Assembly: GCA_027064005.1 (NCBI GenBank)
Contig: JAMOQM010000030.1
Coordinates: forward strand, 1-58,680
Length of the DNA: 58,680 nucleotides
Direction of reading: 5' to 3'
Origin: Candidatus Cloacimonadota bacterium
Lineage (GTDB): Bacteria; Cloacimonadota; Cloacimonadia; Cloacimonadales; JAMOQM01
Made by a program: the position numbers and the translations under genes. Every line of letters starts with the position of its first letter. Position 1 is the first letter of the stretch. Positions 2,542-58,680 of this stretch are shown here, one piece after another. Under the pieces are notes generated by a model. The model was not told where the DNA came from and did no database searches. It saw only the letters and a list, made by a program, of their open reading frames with translations.

Positions 2542-4173
2542 TTATTTCAGCATTAAAAGTTTACTTATAACCGATTCATTTATAGTTTTAATTTGATAAA
2601 AATATATTCCTGAACCTACGTTATTACTATTATCATCTTTCCCTGTCCAAATTACAGAATGTACTCCTTTTGATAGCAATTCATTTTTTAGTGTTTTTAC
2701 TTTTTGCCCCTTTATATTAAATATGGAAATTTTTACATTTTCAGCTTTCGGTAACTCAAAAGAAATTGTGGTTCCTAAACTACGACTGCTTCCAGACAGT
2801 TTGAAAGGATTGGGATAACAACTATGTTTTAAGATTTTATTTATTTCCGGATGAAGATTCTCCCGTTTAACCAATTTTACAATTGAATATTCTTGATGTC
2901 CCGGAATAATATGGTTATCTGTAAAAATTCCGGTATTTTTTTCATAGACTTTATAGTTAGAAACTATTTTATTACTTCTCCCGGTAACAACTTCAAAAGT
3001 AAATTCGCTCTCATTTCTATTCATTCGATCGGAATACACAAGAATCTGTTCGGAATTCTCATCGACTTTTACTCCACCCACACAAACATCATTTTCAAAG
3101 ACTCCGATTTCTTGAATTTCAGGATCAATATCAACGACATCAATTACTTCATAATCCGCTTTTTTAGTATAAGAAAAATTATCAGGTTCTTTCTTTACAT
3201 AATTTTTAGATCGGGAAGTTTGATCAAGATGCCATTGGAAATTCGGTATTCCCGCTTTCAAGTACACATAATATCCTTCGCCATAATGCAGTGGTTTTAA
3301 TTTGGCACTCGGAAGAATTTCCGGATCAGTAACGCCTCTTTCATTTTCCATCTTATCAAAATACCAATTTTCCGATTTTATTTTTTCGACTTTATCCCAA
3401 TTATCTCCAAAAGCTACATCTATCATTTCACTATGTGGCAACCAATAACCTATCCAATACCAACCTGCATTTAAACTTATCGTTGTTGTCGGAGATAAAA
3501 CGGTTCCGGTTGCTATATAAATTCTATTGTTTGGGGGAAGAAATTGAAATTTTTCACCGTCACTGCTCTTTAAGTTAGCATCGGCATTATGCCAACTAGT
3601 ATTATTTTTTTGCAAGTATCCAAAATTTCCCAAACTTTCAAATTTTGTAAAATCATTAGGAATCATACTCATAAAGATAGGGACAGCGAGAACCGGATTA
3701 TTATTCTCCCTATCCAATTTTGGAAAAGATTCCCAATTCCAACCGGGATGTAATAATTTGTTATCAAAACAAAATTCTATATCACTATTTTCGTAACAAT
3801 CAGTTTCGTTATTATAAGTGTAATTAGTGGTTGAATTAAGCGTATAAGTTTCATTTGCTACTCCGTTAGCAGTTACTTCAACATGACAAGCATCAATATT
3901 ATTTTGAATTGCGCCGTAATAAAAATCTTCAAATAAAACAGCATTCCAGCCTTTGGTTAAATTTACATTTTGACTTCTCAAAGTTATATTATAATCGCTT
4001 ACAATATTTACGATTGCATTATTGATAGGAATATTGGAATATATGTAATATTTCACATTATCAGGATTTAAAAAAGCTCTAACTATTAATTCTTGATTTG
4101 CAAATAGAAAGGTTGATAAAAAAAACAAGATAAAAAGGATAAGGGTATTTTTAATTATAGTACGTAAAAACAT
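2542..4173 (-). CDS. Secreted protein of unknown function with T9SS C-terminal sorting domain
   Basis: 543-aa ORF with an N-terminal signal/TM (LILFILFFLSTFLFA). C-terminal CYPNPF...GIYFYQIKT...LMLK matches the same CTD pattern as 35..2410. Confidence 0.5.
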   Translation of the reverse strand: MFLRTIIKNTLILFILFFLSTFLFANQELIVRAFLNPDNVKYYIYSNIPINNAIVNIVSDYNITLRSQNVNLTKGWNAVLFEDFYYGAIQNNIDACHVEVTANGVANETYTLNSTTNYTYNNETDCYENSDIEFCFDNKLLHPGWNWESFPKLDRENNNPVLAVPIFMSMIPNDFTKFESLGNFGYLQKNNTSWHNADANLKSSDGEKFQFLPPNNRIYIATGTVLSPTTTISLNAGWYWIGYWLPHSEMIDVAFGDNWDKVEKIKSENWYFDKMENERGVTDPEILPSAKLKPLHYGEGYYVYLKAGIPNFQWHLDQTSRSKNYVKKEPDNFSYTKKADYEVIDVVDIDPEIQEIGVFENDVCVGGVKVDENSEQILVYSDRMNRNESEFTFEVVTGRSNKIVSNYKVYEKNTGIFTDNHIIPGHQEYSIVKLVKRENLHPEINKILKHSCYPNPFKLSGSSRSLGTTISFELPKAENVKISIFNIKGQKVKTLKNELLSKGVHSVIWTGKDDNSNNVGSGIYFYQIKTINESVISKLLMLK

Positions 4174-10404: not shown

Positions 10405-13338
10405 ATGAAAAAAATCTTTTTACTGATTTTCATGATTTCGTTGAGCAAATTTTTGTTTGCTTTCGGAGCATTTAATCTGATGAACGGGAGAAACCATCCC
10501 GAATTAAAATGGCAAGAAATCCAATCTAAACATATCGAAATAGTTTATAGTGATTCTTTGGAAGAAATTGCTAATCAAGCTATCAATATTGCCGAAGCAA
10601 CTTATACAAGTTTATCTAAATCATATGATATTGAACCAAACAAAAAAGTTGTTATTTATATTTCAGATCAAGATGAAATTGTAAACGGTGCCACTGTTAT
10701 GAACGATTATATCTTCGTTTATGTAAATCAAAATGACTTTATGAAATTATTTTCAGGAAGAGACAAATTCCTCCGTAAAGTTATTTCTCACGAAATGTCA
10801 CATTATTTCTTGTTCACGGCAACCGCCTCTTGGATTACAAAATTTATTCCGGTGATTCCCGAAAATCAAATTCCCTTATTTATTAATGAAGGGTTTGCTC
10901 AATTTTTTAGTGGTGAAGAATGGGAAATAAATCGTGGAGATCGTTATTTAAGAAATGCTATCTTCTCGAAAAATCTGAATGTTGACGCCGGTAATTTGGA
11001 TTCAGGAAGATTGCTTTACGCCAAAGGTTTCTCAATGGTTCGATATCTTTATACTTTTTACGGAGAAGCTAAAATTCAAAAATGGTTAAAATATAGAAAT
11101 CAGGCAAAAATATTTGGATTCAAAAAAGGATTCAAAAAAGTATTTGATAAATCTTTTGATAGCTTTTTAAAAGAATGGGAAAATTACGTTTCAACCTATT
11201 ATTTCGGAGAAGCTTACGATTTAAAAAATAAATACCGGGATAACAATTCCAAAGATTTGACGCTCAATGCAATCAAAACAATAGCTAAACCTCTGGCAAA
11301 AATTTATAAGATTAAAGCTTTTAATGACAATCAATATCTTGTTGTAGGAAAAGAAGATAAAAACCAACAATTTGCAGAATTTATTTACGCTGAAGCTAAA
11401 GAAGATTCTTTGAAAAAAAACAAACTCATTTTCAAAAATAAGAAAGTAATTGTAAATACGAATGTTAATAATTTTTCAATTAGTCAAAACGGAAAATATG
11501 TAATTTACAATAGATATCTCAGACATAAACACGGTTCTATAAAACCAACAATCATTCTTTTTGACCGTAAAAAAAATAAAAATTTCGAGATAGCAACCGG
11601 TAATTATCCTCAAATTTTGAACGACAAAACTATTTTTTATCAAAGTCATAATTTAAAAAATAACTTCATCAAAAAATATAAAGCCGGTAAAATATCCAAC
11701 TTCCTTTCCTTATCAATTAAAAACAACATCGGTCAAATCTCCGTCAATGAATCGCAAAACAAATTGGCTGTTGCTATTTTTGACGATAAAAATCAATTCA
11801 AATTAGACATATTTGAATTAGATTCCGCAAAATTAATCTCAGAAAAAATCTTAGATTATTTTCCGCTTAAAATTGATTGGTTAAATGACGGCAGTCTTTT
11901 GGTTGTAAAAGATTCTAAAAATCAAGATGAATCAATTATCAGGATTAATCCCCAAAACGGTGAAATTACCAAATACCAAACTCCCCCGTTTTTTGTTGAT
12001 CCGGTAAAATATTCTTTGAAAAATGATTCCCTAAAAGCAATTGTTATTGGAGAATTAGGACGTAAAAAATTCCAATTTGGTGAAATAAATATTCCTAAAT
12101 TTAGAGGGAAATCTATCAAAAAATCAAACTATTTTACAAAATGGATTGAGGCAACTCCTTCTTCAAAAATTGAATGGAAAAATCTAAACATAAAACACAC
12201 AAATCCGCAAAATTATTCCTCGATAAAAAATATAAAATATCGTTCTTCCCTACTCTTTCCATTTACAAAAAGCTTGTTTTCAGAAGCAATTTTTTCAGAA
12301 GGTTTAGGAAAACACATGATTATCGGAGCGGTAAATTTGCCATATAACTTCAAATCGAATGATTTTTACTACAATTTTACGTATATCAATAAATGCCTCT
12401 CTCCCACTCTAACATTTTCCTCAAATAAATTTATGATGTATTCGGCAGTGATGAATGATAAAGTTTATTATCACAGATTTACCGATTATAGCCTGAATGT
12501 TGGCTTTCCGGACCTAATTAATTCAACACCTTTCTGGGATTTACTAAACTCGGTAAATTTCTCTTATGGAAAATATGAAGCCAAAGATAAAAATTTTAAA
12601 TACTTTGAAAATGGTAAAGTCGCTCAAGCCGGTTTTTCCACAGATTTGAAATACAATTTACCTTATTTGAATTCTGAAATTCATCCGATAAGAAAAATTT
12701 ATTTAGGATATAAATTTACCGCCGGTTCAGATAAAATTCTCGGCGATAAAACATTTACGAAACAACAATTGAATTCCGATTTGTCAATCGCTCCCTTATT
12801 TTCTTTCGTTAAAATGCCTTTATTGAGATTCTTAAATTTAAGGAATATCTCTTCTTATGAAAAATTAAACGGCGATTCTTTTATACAAAACAAACCCGGA
12901 ATTACTTCTGAAGAGAAAATAAATTTCAATGGCTCCGGCATCTCAGGAAGAACTTTTTTGAGAGGTTATGAAAAAGACGATTTCAATTCAGGAGTATTAT
13001 TTGGTGATGAAATTTTATCAACTAAAAATGAAGCTTGGATAAAATTATTTGATAACATTCACTTTAAGATCGGATTCGAAAAACCAATTATTTTAATAAA
13101 ATACGTCGGATTTGGCGGGTGGTATGATTATTTAAAAATTAAAAATCCGGCATCATTGAATTTAACTTTTGGAAATAGTACAGAAATAAAAGCTATGGGA
13201 AATGAATTAAAAGCCGAATTACAAATATTAGGAATCCCATTTATCGGAAGATATGGACAAGCTTATCGAACTGATAAATCTAAAATTGATGACTACTTTG
13301 AATTATCAATCCCGTTTGATTTGTCGAAGTATATGTAA
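10405..13338 (+). CDS. Large outer-membrane protein, paralog of 6156..9149 (HExxH N-domain + propeller-like middle + C-terminal barrel-like region)
   Basis: 977 aa with a signal peptide (LLIFMISLSKFLFAFG). HEMSH at nt 10789-10803. The N-terminal layout matches the paralog (W..l..kH.ei.Y ... HEMxH). The C-terminus does not end in an aromatic residue. Confidence 0.45.
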   Translation: MKKIFLLIFMISLSKFLFAFGAFNLMNGRNHPELKWQEIQSKHIEIVYSDSLEEIANQAINIAEATYTSLSKSYDIEPNKKVVIYISDQDEIVNGATVMNDYIFVYVNQNDFMKLFSGRDKFLRKVISHEMSHYFLFTATASWITKFIPVIPENQIPLFINEGFAQFFSGEEWEINRGDRYLRNAIFSKNLNVDAGNLDSGRLLYAKGFSMVRYLYTFYGEAKIQKWLKYRNQAKIFGFKKGFKKVFDKSFDSFLKEWENYVSTYYFGEAYDLKNKYRDNNSKDLTLNAIKTIAKPLAKIYKIKAFNDNQYLVVGKEDKNQQFAEFIYAEAKEDSLKKNKLIFKNKKVIVNTNVNNFSISQNGKYVIYNRYLRHKHGSIKPTIILFDRKKNKNFEIATGNYPQILNDKTIFYQSHNLKNNFIKKYKAGKISNFLSLSIKNNIGQISVNESQNKLAVAIFDDKNQFKLDIFELDSAKLISEKILDYFPLKIDWLNDGSLLVVKDSKNQDESIIRINPQNGEITKYQTPPFFVDPVKYSLKNDSLKAIVIGELGRKKFQFGEINIPKFRGKSIKKSNYFTKWIEATPSSKIEWKNLNIKHTNPQNYSSIKNIKYRSSLLFPFTKSLFSEAIFSEGLGKHMIIGAVNLPYNFKSNDFYYNFTYINKCLSPTLTFSSNKFMMYSAVMNDKVYYHRFTDYSLNVGFPDLINSTPFWDLLNSVNFSYGKYEAKDKNFKYFENGKVAQAGFSTDLKYNLPYLNSEIHPIRKIYLGYKFTAGSDKILGDKTFTKQQLNSDLSIAPLFSFVKMPLLRFLNLRNISSYEKLNGDSFIQNKPGITSEEKINFNGSGISGRTFLRGYEKDDFNSGVLFGDEILSTKNEAWIKLFDNIHFKIGFEKPIILIKYVGFGGWYDYLKIKNPASLNLTFGNSTEIKAMGNELKAELQILGIPFIGRYGQAYRTDKSKIDDYFELSIPFDLSKYM

Positions 13339-13347
13339 AGGGAAAAG

Positions 13348-13375
13348 GGTTTAAGGTTTATGGTTTATGGTTTTA
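13348..13375. repeat. 4 x 7-nt microsatellite-like tandem repeat (ggtttaa ggtttat ggtttat ggtttta)
   Basis: Read directly from the sequence, 10 nt after the stop of 10405..13338. Confidence 0.7.
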
Positions 13376-13421
13376 AATTGGAGGGGTAAATCACGATTAA
13401 ATCAAAACTCCGATGTGTTTT

Positions 13422-13445
13422 GTCATTCCCGCGAAAGCGGGAATC
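13422..13445. repeat. REP-like palindromic module gtcattcccgcgaaagcgggaatc
   Basis: 8-bp stem attcccgc/gcgggaat with a gaaa loop. The same module (gtcattcccgtgaaaacgggaatc) occurs in every unit of the 58011..58680 array. It is flanked by imperfect direct repeats acgattaaat(c/t)aaaa..tccgat at 13393-13414 and 13460-13482. Confidence 0.75.
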
Positions 13446-13522
13446 TCCTTCGCTAAAAGACGATTAAATTAAAAAATCCGATTCATCATTCCAACACTTT
13501 ATTTTTTAATATCAGATAATTT

Positions 13523-14521
13523 TCATTCATAATTTTTCATCGCAAATAAAACATCTTCTAAATTTTCTACAGAATATATAAATGGCTCACCAATTCCTTT
13601 TAAAAGGACAAGGTTAATTTTGTTCGTATTTTTTTTATCTGAAGAAATCAAATCAGCGAGAATATCAATTGTCAATCCGGATAAATCAATTTCATGATCA
13701 GACAATTTATTTAGCAATAATTTCACTTCATCATCATAATTAATTTTCAAATAACGGTGTGCAAAAAAAATGGCGATTCTTATTCCAACAGCAACAGCTT
13801 TTCCATGAGGAATATTAAAGTTAAAATATGATTCAATTATATGAGCAAAAGAGTGTCCAAAATTCAAGAATCTTCTCTCTCCTCTATCAAAAATATCTCT
13901 TTCACAAATATCCATTTTAATTTGGATAGTTTTCTTGATAACATCTTCCAAAGATTTTTTTTGAAGAATTAAATCTCTTAATTTGTTTTTAGAAATTAAA
14001 GCCGTTTTGATTATTTCAGACCAGCCGTTTTGAATCTCATTTTTGGGAAGGGTCTGTAAAAATCCAAAATCAATAAATATTTTTGAAGCCGGATAAAAAC
14101 TGCCGATAGCATTTTTCCTTTCATTAAAATGAACAGCTGTTTTGCCCCCCAAAGAAGCATCAACCATCGCCAACAAAGTTGTAGGGACAAGAATCAAATT
14201 ACATCCTCTCATAAACAAAGAAGCGGCCAAAGCTACATAATCGGTGGTAACTCCCCCACCTATCGCAACGATATTAAAAGAGCGATTTAATTTATTCTTT
14301 TGAAAAAAATTGAAAAGAAAATTTAACGATTCAAAGTTTTTATTTTTTTCAATCGCCTCAAATCCAATCAAAGGATATTTTTTTAATTTCGCTCTTAAAT
14401 CGGGATATAATTCCAAAATCTTTTCATCAACAATAAAAGCATAATTTTCATCATTAAAAAATTCAGGTAAAGCTCCGAAAATAATTTTGGTCGATTTATT
14501 TGTTTTAAAATGAAATTCCAT
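13523..14521 (-). CDS. aroB: 3-dehydroquinate synthase
   Basis: 332 aa. GGGVTTDYVALAASLFMRGCNLILVPTTLLAMVDASLGGKTAV and HGKAVAVG are typical AroB motifs. Confidence 0.85.
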   Translation of the reverse strand: MEFHFKTNKSTKIIFGALPEFFNDENYAFIVDEKILELYPDLRAKLKKYPLIGFEAIEKNKNFESLNFLFNFFQKNKLNRSFNIVAIGGGVTTDYVALAASLFMRGCNLILVPTTLLAMVDASLGGKTAVHFNERKNAIGSFYPASKIFIDFGFLQTLPKNEIQNGWSEIIKTALISKNKLRDLILQKKSLEDVIKKTIQIKMDICERDIFDRGERRFLNFGHSFAHIIESYFNFNIPHGKAVAVGIRIAIFFAHRYLKINYDDEVKLLLNKLSDHEIDLSGLTIDILADLISSDKKNTNKINLVLLKGIGEPFIYSVENLEDVLFAMKNYE

Positions 14522-14522
14522 T

Positions 14523-16895
14523 TTACTTTCTTATTAAAGCAATTTTTCCTTTATAAATCTTTTTCCCGGCGGAAACAACATAAAAATACATTCCATTTCC
14601 ACAATTTCTATTATTAGAATTTTTCCCATTCCAAGCAAAATCGCCAAGAATAGTTTCATTTAATTTTATAACTAAATCACCGTTCAAATCATAAATACGA
14701 CAAATATTTTTGCCTTTTGGAAAAATAGAATTTTCATTTTCAATTCGGAGAGTTTGAGTAATATTTGGATTAAACGGATTAGGATAAGCAATTACAGAAT
14801 CAATTTTCAAAGAATTTGGTTTTGAGTCAATTCCAATATTCACTGAATTTAAACCGCGATCACTGCCAATATACATATTCCCGGAGTGAGAATCATAAGC
14901 AAAAGAGGTGATATTATTTGATAATAAAGGCGAATTTTCAGAAGTTAAAATTGTGTAAGACTCATCATAAATATCATAAACGGAAATCCCGAAATCACGT
15001 GTACCTATCCAAACTCGATTAAAAGGATCTACATATAAAGCGGTTGGGAAACCATCATTTGAACCGTATAAACGAGGTTCATCGACATAATATAATATTT
15101 CATTTTGCCAGGAATGCCCGCTATATTTTTTCCTCTTATAATCTACATCATATTTATACCAAATATTTTTTGTGTACATAAAGAGACCATTTGGAGACGC
15201 AACCCAAAGCATATCATTACCGTCATAATCTTTTCCAAGAGCTAAATCATAAATTTGTTTTTTCTGTAAATCCAGAATAATCGGTTGAGTCCAGGGATAT
15301 TTTCCCGCATTATGAAATTTTGCCAACGTTCCGATTCTCAAACCTGATTCATAAGTTCCAATATAAGCTTTGGTTGAAGATATCGCTGCACATAAAGGAT
15401 CCGGTCCCTGATCATGAGATGTAGGAAAAGTAAAAGTATCGATAACTTCATTATTCTCGACAATATTAATTCCTCCCGGATAGGAGCCAATCCACATTCT
15501 ACCTTGAGTGTCATTTTCCAAAAAAGATATTGTTTTATTAATTAAATTATTCTGATCGACAAATGGCTCTATCTCACCTTGATCGAAAATGGTAATCCCT
15601 CTTTGCCAATCATATTCAGAATCAATTGGTTCATCCCAAGCTCCAAACCAAACTCTTCCATCGTTGCCGGTTGCAATTCTAAAAATATTGTCACTATTTA
15701 GATTAGAGTTGGCTGTATTGTAAGAAACCCAATTTTCTCCGTCAAACTTACTAACTCCCATTGTTCCGCGAGGGGCATTTCCTGATCCGAGATGTCCGTC
15801 ACAAATCCAAAGATTATGCTCTTTATCGATTGTCATTTTAGTAACTGTGTTGGTTCCGATGGTATTTTTTTCATAATGTTTCCAAAGATCGTTTTTATAA
15901 ATGTCCGTTCCTTTTCCCCAAGTAGAAATAATTAATTCTCCATCAATGTAATCCATTGATTTAATTCTATCAGAGAGAACGCTATTTTTGCTTTTGTTAA
16001 AATAATCAATTTTACCGGTTGAAGATATTTTCCCGAGCGGATAATTGCTTAAAGAATTCTTAATAATCAACTCTTCTTTTTCCCAAAATCCATAACTAAA
16101 ATAAATATTTCCATCATCATCTACAGCAATTACATTTACAAAATTGCTTTTTAGTCCGTTTGCAGTAGTGTAAGGAATTAAATCTTTAAAATTCAAATCA
16201 TAATTCATTATTCCAAAATTAGTTGCTAAATAAATTCTTTTTCTTTTTACAACCAAATCCTGAATTGCATTTCCGTGAGTTTGAGAATTTGAGAAATGAT
16301 GCCAAGCTGAAACCAAATATAGAGAATCTGTAGAAACATAATCTACACCTTGAGCAGTTATAGCATACATAATATTATTATGAATTACAATTTTGCTGAT
16401 ATCTCTGTCCGTCAAACCATCTTCATCGTTATAATTATCGATTAAAATTGGAATTGGAAAATGCGAACTGATTTGAAAAACCGACAATCCTTGACTGGTG
16501 GCAATATAAATCAAAGAGTCTTTATGGGTAATATAATTTACGCGATTAGATAACAATCCCAGCGTTTCTGTAATAGGAATTTTAAAAGCGTTACCATCAT
16601 AAACATTAACTCCACCGTTTTCTGTTCCCATTAAAACATATTTACTCAATTCTTGATAATCCAGAGAGTTTATTTCGTTATCATTCAAACCTTCTAATTT
16701 TGTGAATTTCTTTTTAACTTCCCCTGTTGATTTATCAAAGACAACAACTCCTCCCCAAGAAGCACAATAAAGCTCGGAACCAATTGTCTGACTTTTATAA
16801 ATGTGAGTTTGGTTAGTATAAATTTTCCAATTCTTAAATGCAAATAATAAAAATATTTGCAGGCTAATCATAATCGTAATCAAGACTTTTTTCAT
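14523..16895 (-). CDS. Secreted beta-propeller (two-component-regulator-propeller-like repeats) protein with T9SS C-terminal domain
   Basis: 790 aa with a signal peptide. Repeated ~45-aa units contain W/Y...G(L/I) motifs (WIGTRDFGISVYD, MYIGSDRGLNSV, LWVASPNGLFMY). C-terminal AYPNPFNP...GMYFYVVSAGKK...IRK. Confidence 0.55.
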   Translation of the reverse strand: MKKVLITIMISLQIFLLFAFKNWKIYTNQTHIYKSQTIGSELYCASWGGVVVFDKSTGEVKKKFTKLEGLNDNEINSLDYQELSKYVLMGTENGGVNVYDGNAFKIPITETLGLLSNRVNYITHKDSLIYIATSQGLSVFQISSHFPIPILIDNYNDEDGLTDRDISKIVIHNNIMYAITAQGVDYVSTDSLYLVSAWHHFSNSQTHGNAIQDLVVKRKRIYLATNFGIMNYDLNFKDLIPYTTANGLKSNFVNVIAVDDDGNIYFSYGFWEKEELIIKNSLSNYPLGKISSTGKIDYFNKSKNSVLSDRIKSMDYIDGELIISTWGKGTDIYKNDLWKHYEKNTIGTNTVTKMTIDKEHNLWICDGHLGSGNAPRGTMGVSKFDGENWVSYNTANSNLNSDNIFRIATGNDGRVWFGAWDEPIDSEYDWQRGITIFDQGEIEPFVDQNNLINKTISFLENDTQGRMWIGSYPGGINIVENNEVIDTFTFPTSHDQGPDPLCAAISSTKAYIGTYESGLRIGTLAKFHNAGKYPWTQPIILDLQKKQIYDLALGKDYDGNDMLWVASPNGLFMYTKNIWYKYDVDYKRKKYSGHSWQNEILYYVDEPRLYGSNDGFPTALYVDPFNRVWIGTRDFGISVYDIYDESYTILTSENSPLLSNNITSFAYDSHSGNMYIGSDRGLNSVNIGIDSKPNSLKIDSVIAYPNPFNPNITQTLRIENENSIFPKGKNICRIYDLNGDLVIKLNETILGDFAWNGKNSNNRNCGNGMYFYVVSAGKKIYKGKIALIRK

Positions 16896-28118: not shown

Positions 28119-29054
28119 TTATTTGAAAAGTGCATCAATGTCGATTTCTTCTTCATCTTTCTTCTTTTCGTTACCACCGCTAAATAAAGCATCTATATCT
28201 ACTTCTTCTTTCTTCTTTTCAACTCCACCGCCAAACAAAGCATCTATATCTATTTCTTCGCTATTATCTCCACCAGATTTTGCAGCCGCAGCGATAGGTT
28301 TTAATTCTTCTTCTTTATCTTTTGGTATTTCAACATCTACGTTTTTTGTTTCAAAGAGATTGTCAATTGCATTTTGAATATCTTTTTTATCTACAAATTT
28401 TGCATCTGAATTAAAAGCGTTTTTATCAATATAATGCTCGGCAGAATGTTCCGTGGAATCTGATCCTTCTTCAAATTCATTTAATAAACTTGCTACATAT
28501 AACAAAGTTTTTTCAGTATCTGATAATAAAGAATAAGCTCCGGCTATTTGTTGAGCTGTAATGTCTTGAAATTGAAGAAAATCAATTATAGTAAAAGCGG
28601 CATCTTGATTCTGATGAATTTTTTCTATGATCTCATTAATTATCGTTTCCTTATCTTTATCATTACTTTTTAGTTTTTCAATCAAATCCAAAATTGTCAT
28701 CTGCTCATCATCTAAACGTTCTGCAACATCCATAATTTTATTAGTAGCTTCTTCTGTCGTTGAAGTTACTTTTTGAAGTTGGGCTCCGGTTTTTTTAAGC
28801 AAACCATCAACGCTCTTCTTTAATTCTGACCGGCTAGAATGAATCGAATCAATAACAACCCGAATAAGTTCATAACTTTTGTCAACTTCTGTTTGAATAG
28901 AATCAATTTTTTCTTTTATCAGATTCATTTTATTCAAAACTACTTTGTTTTCTAATTTGTCACGTTTAATTAAAGGAGCAATTTCATTGTCAATTTCCTC
29001 AAACATCTTTCTCAAAAGTTCAATTGAAGGAACGATCCCTGAAAATTTTGCCAT
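28119..29054 (-). CDS. cheZ: CheZ-like CheY-P phosphatase with a triplicated C-terminal acidic peptide
   Basis: 311 aa, mostly helical. FQDITAQQI has the D-x3-Q catalytic spacing of the E. coli CheZ QDLTGQ motif. The start lies 1 nt after the cheY stop. The C-terminus carries three EE(I/V)DIDALF repeats. Confidence 0.55.
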   Translation of the reverse strand: MAKFSGIVPSIELLRKMFEEIDNEIAPLIKRDKLENKVVLNKMNLIKEKIDSIQTEVDKSYELIRVVIDSIHSSRSELKKSVDGLLKKTGAQLQKVTSTTEEATNKIMDVAERLDDEQMTILDLIEKLKSNDKDKETIINEIIEKIHQNQDAAFTIIDFLQFQDITAQQIAGAYSLLSDTEKTLLYVASLLNEFEEGSDSTEHSAEHYIDKNAFNSDAKFVDKKDIQNAIDNLFETKNVDVEIPKDKEEELKPIAAAAKSGGDNSEEIDIDALFGGGVEKKKEEVDIDALFSGGNEKKKDEEEIDIDALFK

Positions 29055-41031: not shown

Positions 41032-42981
<1,950 letters not shown>

Positions 42982-54969: not shown

Positions 54970-56106
54970 ATGATTTACTTTGATAATGCTGCAACCTCTT
55001 TTCCAAAAGCTCCCGGAGTTGCGGAATCAATTTCCAAATTTATTTTAAATGATAGTGTTAATTCCGGTCGATCATCTTATCCGGCCTCACAAAGAACCGC
55101 CAGATTACTTTTCGATACTCGCGATAAATTAGCAGAATTACTAAATATTGAAGATAGTTCCGGAATTATTTTCACTGCAAATGCAACCGAATCATTAAAT
55201 ACCGTGATTTTTGGTACTTTAAATTCCGGAGATTTCGTTTTAACATCAAAAATGGAACATAATTCCGTGATGAGACCTTTAAGATATTTGGAATCAATAA
55301 ATACAATAAAATTGCTTCAATTCAATTCCAAAAAAGATTATTCTTTTGATTTGGAAGATTATAAACAAAAGTTAAAAATGAATCCTAAACTTGTCATTGT
55401 TACAGCTTGTTCAAATGTAACAGGAGCAATTTATCCTTTTTATGAAATGGCAAAATTAGCAAAGCAAAACGGAGCTTTATTTTGTTTAGATGCTTCTCAA
55501 TATATTGGAATGGACGAAATAGATGTTGAAAATTCAGAGATAGATTTTCTTTGTTTTTCCGGTCATAAAGGACTTTTAGGACCAATGGGAACCGGTGCTT
55601 TTTATATTAGGGAAGGTCTTGATATTCGTTCATTCAGATATGGAGGAACCGGAAGTAAATCTGATAAAGAATTCCAACCTGACTTTCTTCCTGACAAGTT
55701 TGAAAGCGGAACTATGAATTTGACGGGTATTTCCGGTTTGAATGCCGCCTTAGATTTCATCCAAAAAACTAAAATAAAAAATATTAGAAATAAGAAGAAA
55801 ACGCTTCTTAATTTTCTCATAAATGAATTAAAAAAAATAAAAAATATAGAATTATACTCACCTCTTGATATTGAGCATCAAATTGGTGTTTTATCGTTTA
55901 TCCCGAAAAATCTGAATATTTCAAATCTAACAAGGATTCTCGATAAAAAAGACATCGCGGTACGAATGGGTTTGCATTGTGCACCTTCAGCTCACAAAAT
56001 AATTGGTAGTTTTTCCAAAGGCGGAACGATTAGAATCAGCCCCGGATTTTTTACTACTGAAAATGAAGTTGAAGAGCTTATTAAAGTATTGCGAAATAAT
56101 ACCTAA
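54970..56106 (+). CDS. Class-V aminotransferase: cysteine desulfurase / selenocysteine lyase family protein
   Basis: 378 aa. PLP-lysine region FSGHKGLLGP, active-site Cys loop RMGLHCAPSAH, and a short N-terminus as in the selD-linked subfamily. Confidence 0.75.
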   Translation: MIYFDNAATSFPKAPGVAESISKFILNDSVNSGRSSYPASQRTARLLFDTRDKLAELLNIEDSSGIIFTANATESLNTVIFGTLNSGDFVLTSKMEHNSVMRPLRYLESINTIKLLQFNSKKDYSFDLEDYKQKLKMNPKLVIVTACSNVTGAIYPFYEMAKLAKQNGALFCLDASQYIGMDEIDVENSEIDFLCFSGHKGLLGPMGTGAFYIREGLDIRSFRYGGTGSKSDKEFQPDFLPDKFESGTMNLTGISGLNAALDFIQKTKIKNIRNKKKTLLNFLINELKKIKNIELYSPLDIEHQIGVLSFIPKNLNISNLTRILDKKDIAVRMGLHCAPSAHKIIGSFSKGGTIRISPGFFTTENEVEELIKVLRNNT

Positions 56107-56115
56107 GGAGGAAAA

Positions 56116-57150
56116 ATGAAAACAATAGAACTTACTAAATATACACGTTTTTCCGGTTGAGGAGCTAAACTCGGACCGGGAGTCCTAAATAAAGCTTTAT
56201 GTGGTTTGGAACAGCCAAATTATCCAAATTTAATTGGAGATTATCATAATTCGGAAGATGCAGGAATTTATAGAATTAATGACGAAACCGTTATTATTCA
56301 AACCGTAGATTTCTTTCCGCCGATTGTGAACGATCCTTTTGAATACGGTCAAATTGCAGCCGCAAATTCTCTCTCTGATATTTACGCGATGGGAGCAAAA
56401 CCAATTACCGCTCTCAGCATTGTATCTTTTCCAAAAAACAAGCTGAAAATTGAATATCTTAGAGAAATTCTTGCCGGTGGAATGGATAAATTGAAAGAAG
56501 CCAAAACCGCATTAGTTGGCGGACATAGTGTTGAAGATGATGAATTGAAATACGGATTATCAGTAACCGGAATTTCTCATCCAAATGATATTTGGAAAAA
56601 TAACGGCACAAAAGAAGGCGATATCATTATTATGACTAAAAAAATTGGTACCGGAATAATTAATACTGCTCTTCGTGCCGGATTTGCTTCGGAAGAATCA
56701 TTAAAAGAATCATCAAAACAAATGCGAGAATTGAATAAATATTCAGCTGATATTGCAAAGAAAATCGGTATTTCTTCTTGTACCGACGTAACCGGATTTG
56801 GTCTTATCGGCCATCTTTATGAGATGATTGATACCACAAATCTCAGTGCAATTCTTAATTTTGATGAGATTCCAATTCTCCCCGGAACAATTGATTATGC
56901 CCAAATGGCAATGATCCCGGAAGGCTCATACAACAATCGAGAATTTAGACAATCTTCTGTTAAAAATTACGATCAATTGTCTGATTTACAAATTGATTTG
57001 CTGTTTGACCCACAAACTTCCGGTGGATTACTCTTCTCAGTAAACGAAAATAAAGCCAACCTGCTTTTAAAAGAATTAATTGAAAATGGAATTGATGCTC
57101 ATATTATCGGTGAATTTGTCAAAGGAGATAATAAAATTGAAATTAAATGA
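56116..57150 (+). CDS. selD: Selenide, water dikinase (selenophosphate synthetase) SelD, itself a selenoprotein (UGA-Sec at codon 15)
   Basis: ATG 56116 with the SD aaggagg. An in-frame TGA at 56158-56160 lies in FSG-U-GAKLGPG, the Cys/Sec of the N-terminal glycine-rich loop (E. coli GCGCK). The track ORF 56206..57150 is the remainder. The gene ends with a genuine TGA stop at 57148-50. Confidence 0.9.
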
Positions 57151-57394
57151 TTATATCCTGACGTTTGAATCAACTCATAATGCTTTGGCTACTGAAAAAA
57201 TTCTTACAAAAAAGGATATTGAAGTTGAATTAATTCCTACTCCAAGAGAAATTTCTGCGGAATGTGGATTTACGCTTATTTTGGAAAAAATGGATTTACA
57301 AACAATTAAAGATAATACAAACCCTAAAATTTTAGGTGATATTTATATCATTATAAAAGAAGGTAAAAGGAAAAAATATGAGAAAGTTGATTGA
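57137..57394 (+). CDS. DUF3343-like small protein (putative Se/S carrier-associated)
   Basis: Probable TTG start at 57137 (SD aggag 9 nt upstream; overlaps the selD stop). YILTFESTHNALATEKIL...IPTPREISAECG fits the DUF3343 pattern usually found next to yedF. Confidence 0.55.
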   Translation: MKLNDYILTFESTHNALATEKILTKKDIEVELIPTPREISAECGFTLILEKMDLQTIKDNTNPKILGDIYIIIKEGKRKKYEKVD

Positions 57395-58010
57395 TTGTCG
57401 CGGAATGGCTTGCCCTCAACCGGTAGTTGAAACTAAAAAAATGTTAGATAAAAAAGAATCTAATCAATATGAATCTATTGTTGATAATAAAGCTGCAAGA
57501 GAAAATATTAAAAAATTCTGTAAAAGTTATGAAGCCGAGATTTCACAGATTATAGAAGAAAATGGTATTTATCGAATCTTCATCGAAACAAAAAATGATT
57601 TGGTTGTTAAAAATGATAAAGACGTTGATTTTAATTTATATCAATGTGAAATTCCGGAAATAAAAACAGGTAAACAAATAAAAAAAATATTCATTTCTAC
57701 AAATCAATTAGGTGTTGGTTCTGAAGAATTAGGTAAAAATCTGATGACTGGATTTATTTATACTTTGAATGAACTTGCGGTAAAACCTGAAATGATTTTA
57801 TTTATGAATTCCGGAGTTGAATTATGCCTAAAAAATGCACCTACTTTGAAAAGTTTGACTAAACTGTCCGAAAGCGGCGTAAAGATTCTCGTTTGCGGAA
57901 CTTGTTTGGATTACTATAATTATACTGCGGATTTGGGAGTTGGAAAAATTTCCAATATGTATGAAATAACAGAAAATTTGATGGATTCTAACTTTGTTCT
58001 GAAAATTTAG
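57378..58010 (+). CDS. yedF: Selenium-metabolism protein YedF (TusA/SirA-like N-domain + DsrE-like C-domain)
   Basis: 210 aa. N-terminal LIDCRGMACPQPV (TusA CPxP motif); glycine-rich NQLGVGSEELGKNLM; C-terminal VCGTCLDYY. Adjacent to selD. Confidence 0.75.
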   Translation: MRKLIDCRGMACPQPVVETKKMLDKKESNQYESIVDNKAARENIKKFCKSYEAEISQIIEENGIYRIFIETKNDLVVKNDKDVDFNLYQCEIPEIKTGKQIKKIFISTNQLGVGSEELGKNLMTGFIYTLNELAVKPEMILFMNSGVELCLKNAPTLKSLTKLSESGVKILVCGTCLDYYNYTADLGVGKISNMYEITENLMDSNFVLKI

Positions 58011-58680
58011 CCACCGATTTTATGAATAAACAGAAAAATAAAGAAAGAATATTTAACCACTGATAACACAGATAAACACGAACGAAGTTGTAGATCAAGC
58101 AGCTTGCTTGAGGTATTTTCCGATTGTACGAATTCGAAGAAAGATGATAACCTGATGATTGTCATTCCAGTGAAAAAAAATGATTGTCATTCCCGTGAAA
58201 ACGGGAATCTATTATCTTATTCGGAAAAATGACAACCGACCGGAAGACTAAAGAAAGACAAGATTTTAGCCACTGATAACACAGATGAACACGAACGGAG
58301 TTGTAGCTCAAGCAGCTTGCTTGAGGTATTTTTTCGATAGCACGAATTTGAAGAAAAACGATAACCGGATGATTGTCATTCCCGTGAAAACGGGAATCTA
58401 TTATCTTATTCGGAAAAATAACAACCGACCGGAAGACTAAAGAAAGAAAAGATTTAGCCACTGATAACACAGATGAACACGAACGGAGTTGTAGCTCAAG
58501 CAGCTTGCTTGAGGTATTTTCCGATTGTACAAATTTGAAGAAAAATGATCACCTGATGATTGTCATTCCTGTGAAAAAAAATGATTGTCATTCCCGTGAA
58601 AACGGGAATCTATTATCTTATTCGGAAAAATAACAACCGACCGGAAGACTAAAGAAAGAAAAGATTTAGCCACTGATAAC
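58011..58680. repeat. Tandem array of 188/212-bp units (at least 3 full units, truncated by the window end)
   Basis: Unit starts (agccactgataac) are at ~58055, 58268, 58456 and 58668, giving periods of 213, 188 and 212 nt. 58011-58054 looks like a truncated unit. Each unit has hairpin 1 (ctcaagca-gct-tgcttgag plus a T-run, e.g. 58307-58334) and hairpin 2 (attcccg-tgaaaa-cgggaat, e.g. 58378-58397). Long units carry an extra degenerate 25-nt copy (gtcattccNgtgaaaaaaaatgatt). Confidence 0.9.

Follow-up and report, generated by a model that had tools for sequence, protein, structure and literature searches.

The DNA considered here is contig JAMOQM010000030.1 of a Candidatus Cloacimonadota bacterium (assembly GCA_027064005.1), and the whole stretch of 58,680 nt is referred to below as the window. 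The window corresponds to a complete contig, the longest contig carrying the proteins encoded in it being likewise 58,680 nt. At its 3' end, directly downstream of a yedF-like gene and on the same strand, lies a head-to-tail array of repeated units. Each unit contains two hairpins, namely hairpin I, also referred to as the B hairpin, and a second hairpin, designated D, which is of the type of the Ssn-related motif (SRM) and of the NTS of Neisseria, while D' denotes a half-site of D. The features on which the following sections are based are listed below.

57378 to 58010, plus strand: yedF-like gene with TusA and DsrE-like domains, from the list of open reading frames (ORFs), with Pfam families assigned on identical proteins of other contigs
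58002 to 58018, plus strand: truncated A module, aaaatTTAGCCACCGAT, overlapping the yedF stop codon TAG, recognized from the direct-repeat family and the sequence
58055 to 58267, plus strand: unit 1, long form of 213 nt, composed of A, hairpin I (B), C, the D' half-site, D (the SRM hairpin) and E
58268 to 58455, plus strand: unit 2, short form of 188 nt, without the D' half-site
58456 to 58667, plus strand: unit 3, long form of 212 nt
58668 to 58680, plus strand: start of unit 4 (A module), up to the contig end
58052 to 58080, plus strand: A module, the 29-nt cassette delimiter tttaaCCACTGATAACACAGATAAACACg (also given as tttagCCACTGATAACACAGATAAACACg), with copies at 58265-58293, 58453-58481 and 58665-58680, from the module map
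58307 to 58325, plus strand: core of the B hairpin, CTCAAGCA-GCT-TGCTTGAG, with GTAG immediately 5', and copies at 58095-58111 (7 bp) and 58495-58513
58155 to 58176, plus strand: D' half-site, a duplicated 5' arm atgattgtcattccAgtgaaaa with no 3' arm, with a second copy at 58556-58577 and none in unit 2
58185 to 58212, plus strand: SRM/NTS-type hairpin of unit 1, TGTCATTCCCGTGAAAACGGGAATCTAT (dRS3 core 58189-58208), from the dRS3 consensus scan, the SRM regular expression and the fold as single-stranded DNA (ssDNA)
58374 to 58401, plus strand: SRM/NTS-type hairpin of unit 2 (dRS3 core 58378-58397), from the dRS3 scan and the SRM regular expression
58586 to 58613, plus strand: SRM/NTS-type hairpin of unit 3 (dRS3 core 58590-58609), from the dRS3 scan and the SRM regular expression
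13421 to 13448, plus strand: solitary SRM/dRS3-type hairpin TGTCATTCCCGCGAAAGCGGGAATCTCC between convergent genes, a compensatory variant with C-G instead of T-A

Architecture of the tandem array

A repeat search of the window identified three full units and the start of a fourth between 58055 and 58680, with start-to-start spacings of 213, 188 and 212 nt, together with a 219-nt pair at a spacing of 401 and an identity of 95%. These results agree with the unit starts (58055, 58268, 58456 and 58668) given in the original prediction, an earlier reading of the letters alone. The array was not reported by Tandem Repeats Finder (TRF) on the window, even down to a minimum score of 30, and each of three array modules tested had 0 matches in 100 shuffles of the window. 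The same prediction described the array as running off the window, a description that is to be replaced by an assembly break inside the repeat because the window is a complete contig. It also placed the start of the array at the yedF stop codon. The first full unit begins 45 nt 3' of this codon, and only a truncated A module (58002-58018) overlaps it; since the TAG falls inside this module, the repeat supplies the end of the yedF gene.

The order of modules within a unit is A, hairpin I, a short C segment, an optional 25-nt D', D, and an A/C-rich tail E leading to the next A, with the 29-nt A module conforming to the consensus tttagCCACTGATAACACAGATrAACACg. The core of the B hairpin represents the tip of an extended hairpin of ~50 nt that takes in the run of T residues, and the second hairpin, ATTCCCGT-GAAA-ACGGGAAT, has a stem of 8 bp and occurs in every unit. 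The presence of both hairpins in every unit was thus correctly predicted, together with an 8-bp first stem in units 2 and 3, whereas the stem in unit 1 comprises 7 bp. Units 2 and 3 are identical over their first 65 nt, as noted earlier, and over their last 87 nt, not the 81 nt originally counted. The core in which they differ measures 36 nt in unit 2 versus 60 nt in unit 3 and includes a 25-nt indel, which is the D' half-site, a duplication of the 5' arm of the second hairpin placed ahead of the full site.

The array region carries a 102-aa ORF on the minus strand (58162-58470), taken in the original prediction to be the only one and to be spurious, together with several further ORFs of 42-52 aa. 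None of them is a credible gene, because the unit lengths of 213, 188 and 212 nt and the run-length differences of 1-2 nt break the reading frame. Only five relatives of the 102-aa ORF were found among 5.8 billion proteins, and all four of those that could be traced to contigs translate the same repeat, so the judgement of spuriousness is upheld. A literature search on translated-repeat peptides returned only noise. The array is a real, non-coding, structured tandem repeat.

Motif class, folding and conservation of the hairpins

The dRS3 consensus ATTCCC-N8-GGGAAT (ATTCCCNNNNNNNNGGGAAT) is matched exactly at 58189, 58378, 58590 and 13425, corresponding to 4 observed occurrences in the window versus 0.21 expected. 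The SRM search string HGTCWYN(0-2)YYVSBRHN(0-5)WNVSBRGN(0-2)RNCYNB, which was taken from PMC11893778, is matched 4 times in the window and each time on the plus strand, versus 0.03 in Markov simulations; the matches are the three array copies and the solitary copy at 13421. In all copies, GTC is present 5' of the palindrome and C directly 3' of it (GTC-ATTCCCGTGAAAACGGGAAT-C), and the N8 of the dRS3 core is almost invariant, GTGAAAAC. The dRS3 cores of the array are 189 and 212 nt apart, with spacers of about 169 and 192 nt (168-193 nt) that recur at other loci. The solitary hairpin lies in the interval 13338-13523, between a gene of 977 aa and aroB, and is preceded by a GGTTTAT tandem repeat of 3.7 copies (13348-13373).

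In Neisseria, dRS3 elements flanking RS repeats constitute the Neisseria intergenic mosaic elements (NIMEs), and syntenic arrays differ in repeat number (Bentley et al. 2007, PMC1797815). The RS elements are about 50-150 bp long (19-214 bp) and form many families, each bounded by dRS3, and arrays of the NIME type had not been seen outside Neisseria as of that study (PMC1797815). Hundreds of dRS3 copies are present per Neisseria genome, and about half of them belong to a longer oriented motif, the 28-nt NTS (PMC11893778). In N. meningitidis, the 94-aa GIY-YIG protein SsnA binds the NTS hairpin only as ssDNA and cuts just upstream of it, an activity that lowers how much transforming DNA is integrated and limits the recombination of incoming single strands; the positions critical for SsnA include the three bases before the palindrome and the C that follows it (PMC11893778). 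More generally, in Neisseria and Wolbachia, small GIY-YIG nucleases (Ssn) bind motifs of this class as ssDNA hairpins and cleave just upstream of them, and SRMs flank ssn homologues across phyla (PMC11893778, Nat Commun 2025). Judged from its sequence, the second hairpin of the array is a member of the dRS3, NTS and SRM class, and the earlier remark that no described function was known for the structure is superseded by the work on this motif in Neisseria (PMC1797815, PMC11893778).

The conservation of individual segments was compared across 18 units. In the SRM hairpin, only 2 of 28 columns are variable, and the two constitute one compensatory change from C-G to T-A; the compensatory variant ATTCCTGTGAAAACAGGAAT occurs in L007, which is among the 18 units, and also in L151 (L numbers designate the individual contigs and loci collected for comparison). 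The core of hairpin I is variable in 3 of 19 columns and the whole of hairpin I in 10 of 49, the D' half-site in 4 of 26, and the remaining segments of the unit in 30-42% of their columns. The protected part of the unit family is the two hairpin cores, the SRM above all. The layout of constant flanks and a variable core proposed earlier applies to units 2 and 3 and does not extend to the family of 18 units, in which variation is lowest in the hairpin cores.

Structure prediction with RNAalifold on the 18 units yielded two long hairpins and an unpaired linker of ~70 nt. The RNA fold of the plus strand has a z-score of -3.3 against shuffles and that of the minus strand -2.0. As ssDNA, D is predicted to fold with -7.8 kcal/mol (z -4.9) and the extended hairpin I with -11.7 kcal/mol (z -5.6), and the A-rich linker of 70 nt is unstructured. 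Covariation of the RNAalifold structure was no better than in shuffles (253/500). Searches of Rfam returned no match to the array at gathering thresholds over the whole window, no match at E up to 10 over 57000-58680, and five related loci likewise gave nothing at E up to 0.1. A sigma-70 model, the only one applied, placed no promoter-like site on the plus strand of the array, and enrichment of GGA (CsrA-type) motifs, judged by eye, was not convincing. At several positions of the stems, the pair is G·U, and this applies to the plus strand only. The characterization of hairpin I as terminator-like is in line with the number of terminator-like matches in the array (6 versus 0.5 in shuffles); it is weakened by the T-run, a stretch of 4-6 T behind GTA for which pairing inside the extended stem is predicted.

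Distribution of the cassettes and copy-number variation

Within the same population, the unit was found at five or more intergenic loci besides that of the window. The yedF, glyQ, lpxA/dnaE and aldolase loci and a locus with a type IX secretion system (T9SS) gene carry it in runs of 1 to at least 4 copies. They are situated downstream of the T9SS-type gene, upstream of glyQ (three copies) and downstream of the aldolase gene, and at the lpxA/dnaE locus they lie on the opposite strand, antisense to both neighbours. Across the five loci checked, the units are downstream of a co-directional gene in three, divergent from the neighbour in one and antisense to both neighbours in one. All loci share a co-oriented grammar, [A - cassette]n - A - T1 … T2 - T3, in which the cassette types are B-(D')-D, B-X1, X2-D and X3, and the same A module bounds every cassette type in L008, L011, L012, L028, L151 and L152. 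Because this grammar is common to all loci, the array of the window represents one instance of a dispersed modular intergenic mosaic. In L152, tandem B-X1 cassettes are followed by X3, again in the A-delimited arrangement. The alternation of long and short units, from which a higher-order repeat of ~400 bp had been suggested, is not general, given the orders long-long-long in L028, short-long in L029 and long-short-long-long in L151.

Among contigs with identical YedF and with flanks that are 99.4-99.98% identical, unit counts of 0, of 1, of at least 2 and of at least 3 were observed. At the yedF locus, L004 contains no unit, L001 contains one unit with the far flank visible, and L002 contains at least two; at the aldolase locus, two alleles, L151 (at least 4 copies) and L029, occur in the single sample ERZ27262656. 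These differences are based on short-read assemblies that mostly end in the array, and the individual copy numbers are uncertain. Where alleles containing the unit are compared with alleles lacking it, the difference amounts to exactly one unit, located between two 29-nt A modules, which fits recombination and not a target-site duplication. The single unit of L001 is a hybrid, with its 5' part as in unit 1 of the window and its 3' part as in unit 3; such a hybrid would be given by unequal crossover, and a path switch of the assembler could give it too. The unit at L002 10889-11098 (yedF, in one metagenome-assembled genome, MAG) is identical in alignment to that at L028 300-511 (glyQ, in another MAG), an identity due either to gene conversion between loci or to chimeric assembly.

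In L001, other repeat modules occupy the far flank, followed by a convergent gene that encodes a type IX secretion sorting domain. A second mosaic is found downstream of the array in L001 (8949-9396) and L004 (8737-9079). It contains tandem runs with periods of 6-8 nt (ttttaca, ttcatta, ttacttt), a hairpin module gaagtcgaacaatcggaag…ttccgatgttc, the hairpin gtaacgacttRcaaagtcgttgtac and inverted A-like modules, and its composition varies among near-identical strains. In L008, a duplication of 117 bp (2444-2472 and 2561-2589) takes in not only the SRM hairpin but also a ribosome-binding site together with the initial codons of a gene, the product of which ends in a FlgD Ig-like domain, as do two proteins with T9SS sorting domains.

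The modules differ considerably in how widely they occur, although both of those singled out in the original prediction were likened there to short intergenic repeats of many uncultured-bacterium assemblies. For the module gtcattcccg..cgggaatc this proved right, as the 24-mer GTCATTCCCGYGAAARCGGGAATC is present in at least 120 IMG/VR contigs with GC contents of 35-71% and unrelated flanks. For the module ccactgataacac… it did not, with one chance-like coding match in viral contigs; the A-module pattern likewise has one match in IMG/VR, apparently coding. An exact scan for the B hairpin yielded seven contigs in one metagenome and no match in the GTDB species representatives or in IMG/VR, and two lineage-specific patterns had no match in IMG/VR. 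In a subset of the IMG/VR contigs, the Neisseria DNA uptake sequence is present and the hairpin recurs in tandem with a period of 77 nt; these arrays are NIMEs, and a CGGAAAA motif downstream of the hairpin is confined to such Neisseria-type array loci.

Among the matches listed for the IMG/VR loci L031-L150, a 5'-arm half-site is located upstream of the hairpin at 21 of 126 distinct sites, versus downstream at 6. Sixteen of the upstream half-sites are at a distance of 17-21 nt and the rest at 28-41 nt; 10 of the 21 occur in contigs without the Neisseria uptake sequence, and their layout is that of the D'-D pair in the window. One IMG/VR contig with 69% GC (L059) contains, at 2940-3380, a small GIY-YIG gene (PF01541, E = 6e-15) flanked on both sides by the identical 24-mer, which is the NTS-ssn-NTS arrangement of PMC11893778.

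The window itself has a GC content of 30.4%. Its genes include those for the T9SS component PorZ (14523-16895) and for DnaK (41041-42981), and the host also possesses Lpx genes. A search of the GTDB representative genomes with YedF retrieved only relatives with at most 43% identity, and the literature on repeats in Cloacimonadota offered nothing specific. In the selD gene (window 56092-56310; listed ORF 56206-57150), an in-frame TGA at the position of the selenocysteine/cysteine active site is apparent in the translation MKTIELTKYTRFSG*GAKLGPG…, and the gene probably encodes a selenocysteine-containing SelD that starts near 56113 and is longer than the listed ORF. Another tandem repeat of the window, with a period of 51 nt and 2.2 copies (28147-28259, TRF score 163), is located inside the ORF 28119-29054 on the minus strand.

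Interpretation and comparison with known systems

The array is probably a NIME-like mosaic of ssDNA hairpins of the Ssn/NTS class, the length of which changes by recombination, and not a family of small RNAs. Of the two functions offered in the original prediction, a small-RNA family and a recombination-type structure, the latter fits best. The basic element is a cassette of ~200 nt bounded by the 29-nt A module and bearing the two hairpins predicted to be stable as ssDNA. In the mechanism envisaged, growth and shrinkage of the array would proceed through slippage or unequal homologous recombination between the A, B and D segments that the units have in common, and array length probably changes in one of these ways, between the long identical stretches. 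By analogy with Neisseria, a cognate Ssn-type (or RAYT-type) nuclease of the host may recognize the plus-strand hairpins, and the 25-nt half-site duplications just upstream of the hairpin could be by-products of events at the cleavage region. The observations on which this reading draws are the motif match, the conservation of the hairpins, the co-orientation of all copies, their dispersal to several loci and the differences in copy number.

Several observations weigh against this reading. The strict NTS, CGTCATTCCCGCGMAVGCGGGAATCYRG with at most one mismatch, is not matched, as the array copies have 4 mismatches (positions 1, 12, 17 and 28), those at positions 12 and 17 forming a compensatory pair, and the solitary copy has 3. 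A pattern search revealed no GIY-YIG or RAYT-like ORF in the window and 16 same-population loci, ~160 kb that amount to a small part of the genome. Homology between the spacer and Neisseria RS elements is not significant, with 187 of 2000 shuffles scoring as well, and the motif density of 4 per 58.7 kb is low compared with the hundreds of dRS3 copies per Neisseria genome. Furthermore, cassettes are universally delimited not by the SRM but by the A module, which is non-palindromic, and the cassettes B-X1 and X3 contain no SRM. Short-read contigs usually break in the array, and some of the copy-number differences could be assembly path choices, given that two MAGs share one identical unit at two different loci. 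Since the delimiter, the SRM-less cassettes, the density and the spacers differ from those in Neisseria, the array is not filed as a NIME or as a strict NTS.

Several other explanations were weighed. A neutral minisatellite or selfish DNA without a dedicated partner, with hairpins that would serve at most as generic bidirectional terminators or mRNA stabilizers and an SRM resemblance that would reflect the ancient spread of a stable GNRA-loop hairpin, is unlikely, although it agrees with the intergenic sites, which usually face at least one gene 3' end, with the solitary copy at 13421 between convergent genes, and with the variation of copy number without obvious constraint. It explains poorly why conservation is so much higher in the SRM than elsewhere in the unit. 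Moreover, the exact match over 24 nt across genomes of 30-71% GC, together with the conserved non-palindromic flanks, argues for a sequence-specific partner. Such a partner might be a RAYT, an IS200/IS605-like Y1 transposase, if the hairpins belonged to a REP/REPIN-type system whose BIME-like clusters are built by this enzyme and not by Ssn. The B hairpin carries GTAG, the tetranucleotide conserved at RAYT-associated REPs (repetitive extragenic palindromes), immediately 5' of its stem, and both hairpins are predicted to be stable as ssDNA. In addition, Bertels and Rainey regard the Neisseria sequence ATTCCCGCGCAGGCGGGAATC as a REPIN associated with a Group 2 RAYT. However, REPINs are inverted REP pairs, whereas the array has 0 inverted-repeat pairs and all its modules are co-oriented, and the GTC and C flanks of D match the requirements of Ssn specifically. 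No RAYT-like ORF was encountered in the ~160 kb of same-population sequence, which is a weak test, and a system of this type is considered quite unlikely.

The original suggestion of a tandem family of small RNAs, or in a related form one long repetitive plus-strand RNA comparable to NsiR1 or CsrB, would assign a function to the B terminator and to the unstructured A/C-rich linker. The better folding of the plus strand than of shuffles and of the minus strand, the G·U pairs confined to the plus strand, the excess of terminator-like matches and the three of five loci with units downstream of a co-directional gene are in its favour. Nevertheless, such an RNA is very unlikely in view of the missing Rfam family, the covariation equal to that of shuffles, the lack of a detected plus-strand promoter-like site and the weak, predictedly paired T-run. 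In addition, the orientation relative to genes varies, with the lpxA/dnaE units being antisense to both neighbours, and the best-conserved segment is a motif that acts in Neisseria as ssDNA and not as RNA. As for an assembly artefact, most contigs end inside the array, the shared stretches of ~150 nt exceed short-read resolution, and two MAGs have an identical unit at two loci; against this, the tandem arrangement is seen at several loci in independent assemblies from NCBI, ENA, JGI and Logan alike, substitutions and indels distinguish the units from one another, and contigs assembled with k = 141 span both 4 units (L151) and the zero-unit junction (L004), so that an artefactual tandem arrangement is extremely unlikely.

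A further proposal, also unlikely, is that the ~200-nt cassettes comprising A, the GTAG hairpin and the SRM hairpin are self-propagating non-coding units copied whole into A sites through an ssDNA mechanism, in which an Ssn- or RAYT-type nuclease would cut just upstream of the SRM and the half-site duplications would be scars. If it were true, the array would illustrate how NIME-type arrays are built, far from Neisseria, instead of being a passive product of recombination.

If the NIME-like interpretation is correct, the NIME architecture, and not the motif alone, would now extend beyond Neisseria to an uncultured bacterium of low GC content that has a T9SS. The link between the NIME hairpin and a widespread family of ssDNA-specific nucleases was made only in 2025 (PMC11893778). 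The array is a simpler and very regular version, with one hairpin sequence and few cassette types, and may accordingly be easier to use for studying array expansion. Strong support for the NIME-like interpretation would come from an ssn gene with TGTCATTCCCGTGAAAACGGGAATC on its flanks, and if a cognate Ssn were found, the unit would constitute a natural substrate with a new specificity. Repeats of this kind also explain common contig breaks and junk ORFs in metagenome assemblies.

Other classes of elements were considered and set aside. The unit has no terminal inverted repeats and no target-site-duplication pattern of a MITE (miniature inverted-repeat transposable element). With respect to an integron attC array, the one RYYYAAC/GTTRRRY site in the 670-nt region lies outside the units, and no unit has paired R''/R' sites. 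A CRISPR-like reading was rejected because the "spacers" are themselves repeats, and so was a resemblance of the A module to a DnaA box, which amounts to about 5 of 9 positions by eye.

The tandem small-RNA arrays of the NsiR1 type in cyanobacteria consist of direct repeats, each with a hairpin followed by Ts. The array resembles them in its direct repeats, each with a hairpin and a short T-run, and differs in three respects: no promoter was found per unit, the weak terminator is predicted to pair, and the searches for covariation and for an Rfam match came out negative. The bacterial interspersed mosaic elements (BIMEs) of E. coli contain palindromic units that alternate in orientation and go with RAYTs, and the BOX elements of Streptococcus pneumoniae have terminal inverted repeats. 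As in these elements, intergenic mosaics are assembled here from few modules, an internal module or pair of motifs is tandemly amplified to a variable extent, and stable hairpins are predicted; unlike in them, everything in the array is co-oriented and no inverted repeats were detected within it.

With regard to the NTS/SsnA system, the embedding of the motif in a tandem cassette of 190-210 nt, the 4 mismatches to the strict Neisseria NTS, two of them compensatory, and the lack of an ssn gene in the ~160 kb of the lineage that were looked at represent differences, whereas the match to the SRM string, the retention of GTC and C, the stable predicted ssDNA hairpin and the directionality are shared. 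Compared with NIMEs, the host here is a bacterium with 30% GC and a type IX secretion system and not a Neisseria, the N8 is close to invariant, the density is far lower, and each spacer carries a second long hairpin and has no detectable homology to RS elements; in addition, it is the A module that bounds the cassettes, two types of which lack the hairpin. Features in common with NIMEs are the exact fit of the hairpin to the dRS3 consensus, the uniform orientation of the copies and the intergenic position of the arrays; in addition, the repeated spacers are within the reported RS range of 19-214 bp, the repeat number differs between close strains, and half-sites are positioned ahead of full sites in both systems.

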